A stretch of DNA of 64,000 nt, from contig VGDE01000001.1 in assembly GCA_016869875.1 (NCBI GenBank), positions 7,088 to 71,087 on the forward strand, written 5' to 3'. The notes under the pieces are model-generated. The model had not been told where the DNA came from. It ran no database searches and saw only the letters and a list, made by a program, of their open reading frames with translations. Made by a program: the position numbers and the translations under genes. The stretch is from Alphaproteobacteria bacterium (GTDB lineage Bacteria > Pseudomonadota > Alphaproteobacteria > Rhodobacterales > Rhodobacteraceae). Numbering within the stretch: the first letter of the stretch is position 1; every line of letters begins with the position of its first letter. Shown here piece by piece: positions 58,976 through 63,402 of the stretch.

Positions 58976-59578
58976 TCAGCTTTCGTGCCGTTGCCGCAAC
59001 AAATTGCGCACGATCAGCCGGAACGGCACAAGGGCAAGTAGTGCCAGACAAAGTTTGACCAGCCAGTCAGCAACTGCCAACGAAACCCACAGGCGGGTGA
59101 CCGGTCCCTGCCCAAGCAGCGGAACGGCCTCGTTCGCCCAGCCCGTGTTGATGTCGGCGGGCAATGCCGCCGAAAAGGCGATGCCGAAGAACAAGGCCGT
59201 GTCGAGCGCCGAGCCGATCAGCGTCGAGGCCAGCGGCGCCCGCCACCAGCGCCCGTCGCGCAGCCTGTCGAACACCGCGATGTCCACAAGCTGGGCCACC
59301 AGAAAGGCCGTTCCCGAGGCCAGGGCGATTCGCAGGGTCGTTGCCTGAAGACCGGCGGCGACCAGCGAGCAGGCCACCCCGACGACAAAGCCCGCCAGAA
59401 CGACCCGGCGCGCGGCCGCAGGGCCATAGACGCGGTTCATCACATCCGTCACCAGAAAGGCCAGCGGATAGGTAAAGGCGCCCCAGGTCAGCCAGTCGCC
59501 GATCACGAATTGCACAAGGACGTTGGAGGCCACGACAATGGCGGCCATGGCAAGGATGCCGGGCAGAAAGCGGGTCAT
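58976..59578 (-). CDS. Queuosine precursor transporter (YhhQ/VUT family)
   Basis: ASNVLVQ, TWGAFTYP..FLVTD, RIALASGTAFL.AQLVD, DT..FF. Confidence 0.92.
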   Translation of the reverse strand: MTRFLPGILAMAAIVVASNVLVQFVIGDWLTWGAFTYPLAFLVTDVMNRVYGPAAARRVVLAGFVVGVACSLVAAGLQATTLRIALASGTAFLVAQLVDIAVFDRLRDGRWWRAPLASTLIGSALDTALFFGIAFSAALPADINTGWANEAVPLLGQGPVTRLWVSLAVADWLVKLCLALLALVPFRLIVRNLLRQRHES

Positions 59579-59584
59579 CGCTGA

Positions 59585-59638
59585 TTTTCCGTTTTACAAG
59601 GTTGCGGAAGAACTCGGCCCCGGCAGGTTGCGGGGCAG
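59585..59638 (-). promoter_or_regulatory. Candidate preQ1-I-like riboswitch/leader
   Basis: CGAG-UUCUUCCGCAAC-CUUG stem-loop, then UAAAA-CGGAA able to pair with loop UUCCG and cover the RBS. Confidence 0.5.
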
Positions 59639-59669
59639 CGCGGCCCTTACGCCCTGCCGCTCCGCCTTG

Positions 59670-60584
59670 TCAATTCCGCAGGGCCTGCCGGTCGCTGTCG
59701 CGCAGGCGGAACTCGACGATCTCGGTGCGCTGCACGAACAGGAAGTTGTCGTCCGAGATCAGCGTGACCCGGATGTCCTGTCCGTCGTGCCAGACCGAGA
59801 TGCCTTCGAGGTTGTCATATTGCATCGGCCAGCTTTCCAGCAGGATCTCCTCGTCCTGCGGCCCGTCCGGGCCCAGCTGCATCCGCCGGACGCGCGAGGT
59901 AAAGCCAAAGCCGCGAAAGTCCCGCTCCAGCAGATAGAAGAGGCCATCCGGCCCGAAATCGGCGCCCACGGGCAGCCAGCGCGGATCGCGGCGGATCTGC
60001 GTCAGTTCCGACCAGCCGCCATCGAAGGTCAGGACGGTGAACGGCGTTTCCGGCGTGGCCGAGCGTTCCGGCACGGCGACCAGCGTGCCGTCCGGACGGA
60101 TTGCCAAGGCCTCCAACCCCGAATTCGCGCCCATTCCCGGCAGGCGCGGGGGACGCGGAAGACGGGCGGCAGGGGCCTCCGGATGGTCATAGCTTGCCAG
60201 CCGGTGCAGCCCTTCGAAGCTGACCCAGATGCGGCCGTCGGCATCGATGGCCAGGCCCTCGCTGTCGCCGGTGCGCCCGGGGGGCAGAGGATTGCCCTTG
60301 CTGTCCCGCAGGTTGGCGCGACCGTCGATGGACAGGCCTTGGATGACGCCTTGGCCGTCCCGCGCGATCTGGCCCCAGTAAAGATGCGCCTGGTCGGTCA
60401 AGGCATGGAACGCGTCGCCCCCTTGACTGATCTCGATGCCGGAAAAGCCGCCAAAGCTGGGATCGTCGTCACGCCAGACATGGGTGCCGACATAATCAAG
60501 AACCGCGCCTGCATGGGCAGGCGCGGTCGTCAGGGCCAGCATCAGGGCTGACGAGATCAGGGCGCGCCGGCGACGGTGCGGCAT
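59670..60584 (-). CDS. Esterase-like activity of phytase family protein
   Basis: FGGFSG, DSEGL, NSGLEAL, DNLEG, LISDDNF. Confidence 0.88.
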   Translation of the reverse strand: MPHRRRRALISSALMLALTTAPAHAGAVLDYVGTHVWRDDDPSFGGFSGIEISQGGDAFHALTDQAHLYWGQIARDGQGVIQGLSIDGRANLRDSKGNPLPPGRTGDSEGLAIDADGRIWVSFEGLHRLASYDHPEAPAARLPRPPRLPGMGANSGLEALAIRPDGTLVAVPERSATPETPFTVLTFDGGWSELTQIRRDPRWLPVGADFGPDGLFYLLERDFRGFGFTSRVRRMQLGPDGPQDEEILLESWPMQYDNLEGISVWHDGQDIRVTLISDDNFLFVQRTEIVEFRLRDSDRQALRN

Positions 60585-61420
60585 TGTGCAGGCAGTTCGC
60601 TGAGGCGGTAGGTGCGGGGATGACGATAGTCGGGATCGGCCGGCGCGGCGGGTGCGCGCGAGGGATTTGCCCGGTTGTTGATCCATTCCTGCGCCTCGGC
60701 GCAGCCATCGCCTGGAGGCGGGGCATCCTGCGTGCGGCACAACGAGCCTGCGGGGCAGGACAGACGGACATGGAAATGATAGTCATGGGCGTTGATCGGC
60801 CGCACCTTTCGCAGCCAGGACCGGTCGCCTGTCTCCATCTGGCACATCGCGACCTTGGCGACGGGATCGACCAGGATGCGCTCGACCCGGCGGTCCCGCG
60901 CGGCGGCGCGCATGATCGACATGTGCTGAGGCGTCCAGTTCGCGGACAGGCCCAGCCCGTTCGAGGCCACGACCGAGACCGAGGACAGATTCTCGCGCTG
61001 TTGCGGCGACAGGTTCAGCGACGAGGGCGGCAGCATCCAGATGTCGGCATCCAGACCGATCTGGTGGCTGGCATGACCCGAGGTCATCGGCCCGCCGCGC
61101 GGCTGGCTGATGTCGCCGATATAGAGGCCGCGCCAGCCCGCCTGCTGGGCCGCCCGCGACAGGCCGACCAGAAAGTCGATCATTACCGGGTGGCCCCAGT
61201 GCCGGTCGCGCGACAGACGCATCGCCTGCCAGCTGGGGCCGCTTTCGGGCAGCTGCACCATGCCTTGCGCACAACCTTGAGAGTAATAGCCGATGGCCAC
61301 GGCCGGTCCCTGGGACGGGCTGCGGAATGCGCCGAACAGGTCCTTGGCCAGCGGATCGGCGGTGGCGGGCAGGGCCAGCCCCAGCATCAGGGCGGCGGCG
61401 GTCAGGGTCTTCTTGATCAC
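60557..61420 (-). CDS. mepA: Penicillin-insensitive murein endopeptidase
   Basis: RHWGHP, GDISQPRGG...GHASHQIGLDAD, HDYHFHVRL.CP; GTG start. Confidence 0.93.
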   Translation of the reverse strand: MIKKTLTAAALMLGLALPATADPLAKDLFGAFRSPSQGPAVAIGYYSQGCAQGMVQLPESGPSWQAMRLSRDRHWGHPVMIDFLVGLSRAAQQAGWRGLYIGDISQPRGGPMTSGHASHQIGLDADIWMLPPSSLNLSPQQRENLSSVSVVASNGLGLSANWTPQHMSIMRAAARDRRVERILVDPVAKVAMCQMETGDRSWLRKVRPINAHDYHFHVRLSCPAGSLCRTQDAPPPGDGCAEAQEWINNRANPSRAPAAPADPDYRHPRTYRLSELPAQCRTVAGAP

Positions 61421-62787
61421 GGTTGGGCCTCTCCTTCCGGGTCCACCCACCGTAGCAGAACAAGCGCGACAAGGAAGATCACGATCAGCGGAATGAACCC
61501 GATCCGCTGGTTGCCGCTGAGTTGCGTGGTCAGCGCGATCAGGAACGGCGCCAGAAAGGCCGTGGCCTTTCCCGACAGCGCATAAAGGCCGAAACCCTCG
61601 GTTGCGCGATCCTCGGTCGTGTGGCGCACCATCATCGTGCGGCTGGCCGCCTGCAGCGCCCCGCCCGCGCCGCCGATGATGGCACCGCAGACAAAGAAGA
61701 TCACGTCCGGCAGGCGCAGACCGGCCAGCACCGGCTCGGCCGGCGCCGGAAAGCCGAAGATCGTGCTGCGGTCCATGCCGACCAGCAGGGTGCAGACCGC
61801 CGTCAGCGCAAGGATGCAGGCGGTGATGACCGCGCGGGGGCCAAAGGCCCGGTCGGCCCGCCCGCCCAGCCAGCTGATCACCGCGGCCGAAACGGCGCTG
61901 ACGACGCCGAAGACGCCTGCCAGAAAGACCGGCCAGCCCAGCACGGTACCGGCGTAAACCCCGCCAAAGCCGTAGAGCGCATTCAGCGCGTCGCGCGAAA
62001 ACATCGAGGACAAGAGCCAGGCCGCCAGGCTGCGGCGGTGGCGCAGGCTGCGGATCAGCGCCCAAAGGTCCGACATTGCCGCTGCGACCCGGATGGGACG
62101 CCCGCCGTTGCGCGGCTCTTTCACCCACAGAAAGAACGGGATCATGAAGACGACGTACCAGACGGCGGTAAAGGGGCCGACGAAGCGCGTGCCCTCGCGC
62201 AGGGTGGGGTCCAGTCCGAACAGGGGCGGGATGCCGATCAGCGTGCGGCCATTGGGGGTTTCGGCAAACAGCGCCAGCATCAGGCCCAATGCGACGACAC
62301 CCCCCAGATAGCCAAAGGCATAGCCCGACCCCGACAGGCGCCCGATCTCGGCCCGTGGTGCGAGGCCCGGCAGCATCGCGTTGGTGAAGATCGTCGCGAA
62401 CTCGACCCCGATCAGGCCGATGCCGAACAGCACGACTGCCTGGATCAGCGCGGGTTGCACGGGCATCAGCCACCAAAGGCCGGTGGCGCCCACGACATAC
62501 AGCAGCGAAAAGAACCACACCCAGGGCAGCCGCCGCCCCGAACTGTCGGCGATGGCCCCCAGGACCGGCGCAAGACAGGCGATGATCACCCCGCTGAACG
62601 CCAGCCCATACCCCCACAGCGCCTGCGCATGGGCGCCCGCAATCGACACGTTGTCGCCGATGGCCACGAAGTGGCGCTTGGCGACCTCGGCGAAATAGAT
62701 CGAAAAGATGAAGGTCAGCAGCAGCGTGTGATAGGGCTGGCTGGCCCAGTCGAAAAACCACCAGCCCCAGATCCGCTTGCGGTTCAT
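61417..62787 (-). CDS. MFS transporter (UMF1/ATG22-like)
   Basis: WWFFDWASQPY, GYLGG, QAASR, FGLYALSGKATAF. Confidence 0.9.
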   Translation of the reverse strand: MNRKRIWGWWFFDWASQPYHTLLLTFIFSIYFAEVAKRHFVAIGDNVSIAGAHAQALWGYGLAFSGVIIACLAPVLGAIADSSGRRLPWVWFFSLLYVVGATGLWWLMPVQPALIQAVVLFGIGLIGVEFATIFTNAMLPGLAPRAEIGRLSGSGYAFGYLGGVVALGLMLALFAETPNGRTLIGIPPLFGLDPTLREGTRFVGPFTAVWYVVFMIPFFLWVKEPRNGGRPIRVAAAMSDLWALIRSLRHRRSLAAWLLSSMFSRDALNALYGFGGVYAGTVLGWPVFLAGVFGVVSAVSAAVISWLGGRADRAFGPRAVITACILALTAVCTLLVGMDRSTIFGFPAPAEPVLAGLRLPDVIFFVCGAIIGGAGGALQAASRTMMVRHTTEDRATEGFGLYALSGKATAFLAPFLIALTTQLSGNQRIGFIPLIVIFLVALVLLRWVDPEGEAQP

Positions 62788-62841
62788 GCCGTCCCCCTGC
62801 TGCCCCTTGTCGCGCGCTGGCGCCATAAGGCCCACCAAGCC

Positions 62842-63402
62842 CTAGACTGGCAAGCCAAGTTTCGCATCGGCGGGAATGACCGGTGGCCAAGGGCGTGCGG
62901 CATCTGCCCGGATCCAGGCGGCGATCCATTCGGGCAGGGGCGGGCTGTCGGGATCGCGGCCCATCGCCGCCATCACCTCGGCCGGCGGCACGATCCCCTG
63001 GGCCGAGGTGAAGGCCGACCGGATCAGGACCTGGTTGCAGCACTCGGACCCCTTCCACATCGACTGCTCCATATAGGCAAAGCGGTGGTCCCAGCCCACG
63101 AGCCGCGAGATCATCGTGAAGCGTTCAAAAGCACGGATGCGGCGGCGATAGCGGGTCGAGTTCCCTGCCACGGTGATGCCCCAGCCCCGCTGCTTCAGCA
63201 CCGGGATCAGCCCGGTGCGCTGCGCCAGCGGGATGCGGCCCAGGTCGAACAGCGTCAGGGTGCGCCCGTTGTTCAGCTCGATCCACGGATCCAGGTCCCA
63301 GGGCCAGCAGATATGGGTCGACACATGAGTCCCCAAGGGCTCCAGCCGGGGCGCGTTGCGGAACTTGAGCATCTCTTTGGCAAAGCGGATCAGCGGATAC
63401 AT
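62842..63402 (-). CDS. Acyl-CoA thioesterase (hotdog fold)
   Basis: WDLDPWIELNNGRTLTLFDLGR. Confidence 0.88.
   Translation of the reverse strand: MYPLIRFAKEMLKFRNAPRLEPLGTHVSTHICWPWDLDPWIELNNGRTLTLFDLGRIPLAQRTGLIPVLKQRGWGITVAGNSTRYRRRIRAFERFTMISRLVGWDHRFAYMEQSMWKGSECCNQVLIRSAFTSAQGIVPPAEVMAAMGRDPDSPPLPEWIAAWIRADAARPWPPVIPADAKLGLPV

Follow-up and report, generated by a model that had tools for sequence, protein, structure and literature searches.

In the structure of the T. tengcongensis aptamer, a class I preQ1 (preQ1-I) riboswitch of type II, preQ1 is read by C15 of loop L2, U6 of L1 and A29 of L3. The floor of the pocket is C16 of helix S1 and the ceiling is the G11-C30 pair, with C7 held in a base triple; A14 fills the pocket when it is empty (PMC7641330). 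The partner of C16, G5, follows from the aptamer sequence, which is printed verbatim together with that of B. subtilis in PMC10639078. An AC dinucleotide before the 3' strand of helix P1 is a hallmark of types II and III, and the structure available for type III is that of the E. coli yhhQ leader (PDB 8fza according to PMC11625349). According to PMC10622847, E. coli yhhQ is controlled by a preQ1-I riboswitch that buries the Shine-Dalgarno sequence, and type III comes almost exclusively from gamma-proteobacteria.

A parallel in architecture and taxon only is offered by the SAM/SAH riboswitch, which is unrelated to yhhQ and differs from the element described here in ligand, genes (metK) and sequence. 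This riboswitch, too, sequesters the Shine-Dalgarno sequence in an H-type pseudoknot. It is a very small riboswitch reported from Rhodobacterales (PMC6411933).

Our literature search returned no paper tying preQ1 riboswitches to Rhodobacteraceae or other Alphaproteobacteria; the type II set of McCown et al. 2014 lay outside this search and may include some. Here we analyse the leader of yhhQ in a member of the Rhodobacteraceae. Judged from its sequence and from its relatives across the family, this leader is very probably a class I preQ1 riboswitch, compact in form and type II-like in its pocket, which would act as a translational OFF switch.

The yhhQ leader and its genomic context

By the window we mean the whole stretch of 64,000 nucleotides that was analysed. 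A re-reading of the sequence located every leader element listed in an earlier note on this DNA, all on the minus strand. The features are as follows.

59645-59673, minus strand: putative promoter from direct reading, TTGACA (59673-59668), a 17-nt spacer and GTAAGG (59650-59645).
59617-59636, minus strand: hairpin P0, a 6-bp GC stem of GCCCCG (59636-59631) and CGGGGC (59622-59617) with an 8-nt loop, abutting P1 directly.
59613-59616, minus strand: 5' strand of P1, CGAG, with a G.U wobble at the second pair.
59609-59612, minus strand: L1, UUCU, 2 nt longer than the usual UC; U59612 is the counterpart of U6.
59605-59608, minus strand: 5' strand of P2, UCCG, complementary to CGGA and extendable to U59609.
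59601-59604, minus strand: L2, CAAC; C59601 is the counterpart of the specificity base C15 and A59602 that of A14 (roles from PMC7641330).
59597-59600, minus strand: 3' strand of P1, CUUG, the partner of 59616-59613, closing a 12-nt loop.
59592-59596, minus strand: linker L3, UAAAA, the A-tract, 1 nt below the usual 6 nt.
59588-59591, minus strand: 3' strand of P2, CGGA, which includes the GGA Shine-Dalgarno core (59590-59588) and is extendable to A59587.
58976-59578, minus strand: yhhQ, a queuosine-precursor transporter of 200 aa (Vut_1/COG1738; Pfam PF02592, E=1.1e-29).

With both extensions, P2 of the window's copy would reach 5 bp (UUCCG with CGGAA). The start codon of yhhQ occupies 59578-59576; just five open codons precede it, and the N-terminus that it defines, MTR..LPGI, is kept in relatives. 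From GGA to the AUG there are 9 nt in the window's copy and 7-8 nt in most relatives. The 9-mer CCGCAACCU, noticed earlier as a repeat, does occur twice on the minus strand of the leader, at 59633-59625 (loop and stem of P0) and at 59607-59599 (aptamer loop and P1). This duplication is absent from the yhhQ leaders of a same-genus relative and of the other genera compared, and is peculiar to the window's genome.

On the minus strand yhhQ is preceded by a phytase-like gene at a distance of 91 nt, and the TGA stop of this gene lies inside the TTGACA hexamer of the leader. The region directly upstream of the leader (59670-63058, minus strand) combines the phytase-like gene (PF13449) with a Peptidase_M74 domain (MepA-type murein endopeptidase). 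The latter closes an 833-aa open frame at its C-terminus; this frame overlaps a 473-aa frame and is probably over-extended. The window's own genome has queC, queF and tgt.

Conservation and covariation across the family

Our sample comprised 121 Rhodobacteraceae genomes, one per genus. The gene yhhQ is present in 115 of the 121, and 110 leaders were extracted. A shared arrangement of variable P0, 4-bp P1, 10-nt loop, A-tract and CGGA recurs in 99 of the 110, with 7-9 nt from CGGA to the start codon across the leaders that have it. The consensus runs from a variable hairpin through CAAG-U-C-UCCG-CAAC-CUUG-UCAAAA-CGGA and a further 7-8 nt to the start codon. Among the eleven leaders left over, L017 has a degenerate form and ten hold nothing similar. 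The parser that recognised the motif required the U, CCG, CGG and complete pairing of P1, which in part accounts for their invariance; it made no demand on the loop C, the length of the A-tract or P0.

Both helices vary in a compensatory manner. The first pair of P1 is C-G in 88 leaders, G-C in 6 and A-U in 2; the second is A-U in 91, G.U in 5 and G-C in 1; the third is A-U in 92 and U-A in 5, and the fourth is invariably G-C. The inner pairs of P2, CCG with CGG, do not vary among the 99, both strands being required by the parser. Its outer pair is U-A in 52-59 leaders, C-G in 10 and A-U in 1, and a purine-purine mismatch stands there in 22 of the 99. Compensatory changes are thus seen at three of the four P1 pairs and at the outer pair of P2. 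Covariation across yhhQ leaders, which the earlier note had proposed as a check, is accordingly present in P1 and P2, and in all 500 column shuffles the score stayed below the observed one. Pairing amounts to 91% in register, as against 11-48% when the 3' partners are slid by one to three columns, and RNAalifold recovered P1 unprompted.

The unpaired positions are conserved to a similar degree. The base directly 5' of the P1 3' strand is C in 98 of the 99 leaders and the dinucleotide is AC in 90, neither of which was demanded by the parser. The U after the P1 5' strand and the G of the top P1 pair are invariant columns of the leader alignment (A2); that U is parser-required, and on inspection we found no U-less leader that carries the rest of the motif. 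L1 has 2 nt in 90 of the 99 and L3 has 6 nt in 81; nearly all L3 linkers end in AAAA, with interruptions in L019 and L088. In the same alignment the core is almost invariant and the P0 sequences are unrelated between genera, which means that neutral sites are saturated and that the conservation does not come from close kinship.

One leader of the 99, L038 (the yhhQ leader of G060), has G in place of the C before the P1 3' strand (CAAG-CUUG). Such a leader could have a naturally altered specificity, pair in another register or be defective.

R1, the covariance model that we derived from A2, yielded one significant match in the window's genome, the yhhQ leader (30.6 bits). It matched exactly once in each of 97 of the 121 family genomes, every time directly 5' of yhhQ; the six family genomes listed as having no yhhQ match gave none. 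Beyond the family, 150 other alphaproteobacterial families, each represented by one genome, returned nothing credible: there were four marginal matches (E 0.001-0.01), which we rejected since no yhhQ lies downstream and the motif does not fit. The motif is likewise absent from 29 yhhQ leaders of other alphaproteobacterial families, and from that of one further family member (G213). When about 185,000 species genomes were scanned for the exact pattern, at least 120 matches came up; among the matches listed, every named organism belongs to a Rhodobacteraceae, Paracoccaceae or roseobacter-type genus (Ruegeria, Nioella, Shimia, Tabrizicola, Rhodobacter, Gemmobacter and others) or is an unclassified alphaproteobacterial MAG. 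The element is a single-copy, lineage-restricted and yhhQ-specific leader.

About one in ten family members has a yhhQ leader without the motif (L032, L059, L067, L071, L074, L082, L084, L085, L087, L102 and L119). In two such genomes, G062 and G076, the open frame around yhhQ is as long as 573 and 731 aa, lengths that point to a fusion or to another gene context.

Comparison with known preQ1-I riboswitches

The consensus loop of the family, UCUCCGCAAC, is equal in length to the T. tengcongensis loop, UCGCAGUAAC (10 nt), and the two have U6, C7, C9, G11, A14 and C15 in common. C30, the partner of G11, has its counterpart in the C just 3' of the A-tract, A29 in the final A of the linker, and G5-C16 in the top P1 pair, G-C. 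The resemblance to type II extends to the H-type pseudoknot and to the AC before the P1 3' strand, and that to T. tengcongensis in particular to the Shine-Dalgarno sequence within P2 and, as proposed here, to translational control. The earlier note had read the leader as an H-type pseudoknot that sequesters the ribosome-binding site of yhhQ, and the comparative analysis upholds each part of this reading.

The helices and the linker are where the element departs from type II. Type II aptamers (T. tengcongensis, Bacillus subtilis queC) have a P1 of 5 bp, an L3 of 8-9 nt and non-canonical A.A and G.A pairs in P2. None of these traits is found in the Rhodobacteraceae leaders, where P1 has 4 bp (C-G, A-U, A-U, G-C), L3 has 6 nt and P2 is a regular Watson-Crick helix of 3-4 bp (CCG with CGG and one covarying pair); the pocket positions correspond nonetheless. 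Both the 4-bp P1 and the 6-nt L3 are below those of any solved aptamer. Also unlike type II, the element carries a conserved P0 on P1, is confined to Rhodobacteraceae and to yhhQ, and is missed by the Rfam model RF00522.

With type III, as known from E. coli, the element shares the controlled gene, a proteobacterial host that also has the de novo pathway, a short pyrimidine-rich loop, the AC specificity motif, a GGA Shine-Dalgarno core buried in P2 and the failure of RF00522 to find it. In type III, UU follows P1, three G-C pairs are conserved within P1, L3 is longer and variable, and the A-tract runs straight into AAGG, of which the first Shine-Dalgarno base touches the ligand. In the Rhodobacteraceae, by contrast, L1 is UC, P1 is the A-U rich CAAG/CUUG and the tail is AAAA-CGGA, with a C between the A-tract and GGA. 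The E. coli K-12 leader (L031:5170-5220) reads UUGGG-UUCCCUCAC-CCCAA, followed by a long linker and AAAAAGG, and R1 does not match it.

At E<=10, RF00522 matches neither the window nor 20 canonical relatives, and in the 121 family genomes nothing exceeds its gathering threshold of 39 bits. A search with preQ1 models, which had been suggested as a check, is therefore negative, but under identical conditions the validated type III element of E. coli gives no match at E<=10 either, and among our control genomes E. coli does not register for RF00522. Given that miss, the negative result weighs little: it marks the Rhodobacteraceae element as uncatalogued and does not show it to be unrelated. The weak RF00522 matches seen in relatives lie on contigs or at positions other than those of yhhQ. 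The best of them below threshold, L152 (G035:C75:197600-199400, minus strand, about 1575-1617; 25.5 bits), comes from a genome that lacks yhhQ. A 5-bp stem and an A-rich tail are present, and a 10-codon ORF follows; we reject it as a probable chance match because AU rather than AC precedes its 3' strand and no ORF of at least 80 aa lies downstream.

These comparisons bear on how the element should be classified. The type II-like pocket argues for a compacted lineage variant and against a new class. Of the earlier suggestion of a possible new subtype there survives, then, a variant of this lineage, compacted and missed by Rfam. A stronger version would make it a distinct fourth preQ1-I subtype with the smallest natural core yet (28 nt from the first P1 base to the last P2 base), viable through obligatory coaxial stacking of P0 on P1 and possibly shifted in its preference between preQ0 and preQ1; we put this forward tentatively and consider it rather unlikely.

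The ligand is most likely preQ1, possibly also preQ0. That the same fold should be tuned to another 7-deazapurine instead, with preQ0 or a related base as the main signal, seems improbable. The T. tengcongensis aptamer also binds preQ0 well, as stated in PMC10622847, and with a fully Watson-Crick P2 and a short L3 the contacts to the aminomethyl group are unreadable from sequence. Nevertheless every base that reads the guanine-like face is kept, the presence of queF in the genome implies that preQ0 is converted to preQ1, and the E. coli yhhQ switch is reported to prefer preQ1 (PMC10622847).

The 5' hairpin, the predicted transcript start and the window's copy

P0 ends no more than 3 nt from P1 in 96 of the 99 leaders and abuts it with no spacing in 76. 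Its stem has at least 6 bp in 72 of the 99, compared with 13% of shuffled flanks. As no U-run follows the hairpin, it is not a terminator. The earlier note had considered the 4-bp P1 a weakness of the window's copy. This objection falls away: the short helix is conserved throughout the lineage, undergoes compensatory changes and is abutted by a conserved P0. P0 may stack coaxially on P1, making up for the shortness of that helix, shield the 5' end, or both.

Across 95 leaders, TTG is enriched about 34 nt and TA about 11 nt upstream of P0. Enrichment at fixed distances from the hairpin points to a transcription start just 5' of it, where we would place the beginning of the leader RNA. For the promoter proposed earlier, the TTGACA hexamer is present and the family-wide enrichment is in agreement, while a sigma-70 consensus scan of the window called no promoter at the leader; we keep it as putative.

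The copy in the window is the second-lowest of the 97 R1 matches, at 30.6 bits. It has the G.U pair in P1, 2 nt more in L1 (an insertion visible in the cmsearch alignment) and 1 nt less in L3, and, deviating in all three, it could be weakened. The leader of the same-genus relative (L014) is canonical. When the window's leader was folded as a single sequence its z-score was not significant, with the limit that a nested fold cannot show a pseudoknot; the nested fold prefers P2 (UUCCG/CGGAA) alone. Another fold, which pairs the loop with upstream coding sequence, was rejected since that segment is outside the predicted transcript.

A structured leader that works independently of any ligand would be a different explanation for such a conserved element: a constitutive pseudoknot with its 5' hairpin might set mRNA stability or a fixed low level of translation, or bind a protein or an sRNA. 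P0 stands at the predicted 5' end, a place where hairpins would protect mRNAs, and P2 is already the preferred helix in the nested fold just described. Still, we think this very improbable. The unpaired U after P1, the AC and the A-tract are as conserved as the helices, which speaks for a pocket and not for mere structure, and a position-by-position match to the preQ1 pocket would hardly arise by coincidence in an element tied exclusively to a preQ0/preQ1 importer.

A reading at the DNA level, in which a dimeric transcription factor would recognise the CAAG...CUUG inverted repeat as its operator, is scarcely credible. Some compensatory changes in P1 (CAUG/CAUG, GAAG/CUUC) do keep the DNA palindrome too. 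But the G.U wobbles, seen in P1 (5 leaders) and in P0, correspond to no palindrome in DNA, covariation extends to the second helix, which forms a pseudoknot with the Shine-Dalgarno sequence, and the element is strand-specific and downstream of the promoter-like positions.

Proposed mechanism and implications

For the preQ1 riboswitch that we favour, the mechanism would be as follows. The transcript probably starts a few nucleotides before the 5'-terminal P0, which abuts the 4-bp P1. The loop closed by P1 would present the U directly after P1, the CCG segment, and the AC directly before the P1 3' strand. The A-rich linker would run back along P1, so that CGGA could pair with UCCG of the loop as P2, completing an H-type pseudoknot. 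When preQ1 (perhaps also preQ0) is plentiful, it would sit between P1 and P2, held by the C and the U of the loop together with the final linker A. The bound ligand would lock P2 and bury GGA, 9 nt before the AUG; ribosomes would be blocked from starting, and less importer would be made.

The direction of the switch is suggested by the layout of the leader. No terminator fits between the aptamer and the AUG, and GGA lies in P2 at optimal spacing, which together argue for a block of initiation and for an OFF switch. The T. tengcongensis and E. coli switches work in this direction. Such a role fits a genome with queC, queF and tgt in two respects: the genome makes preQ1 itself, so that the importer would be needed only when the pool is low, and intracellular preQ1 exists to be sensed.

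On the comparative evidence taken together, the yhhQ leader represents a known riboswitch class in a real, conserved variant that is specific to this lineage. With it, the range of class I preQ1 riboswitches would come to include the Alphaproteobacteria. The Rfam model appears to miss whole lineages, namely the Rhodobacteraceae element and type III of E. coli. The element also lends itself as a natural test of how far P1 and L3 can shrink when a flanking helix is present.

Rhodobacteraceae (roseobacters, Paracoccus, Rhodobacter) rank with the most abundant heterotrophs of the sea, and queuosine precursors belong to the micronutrients that are exchanged. If an unannotated switch governs the sole dedicated importer, it would offer a direct way to tell when these bacteria salvage 7-deazaguanines and when they synthesise them.
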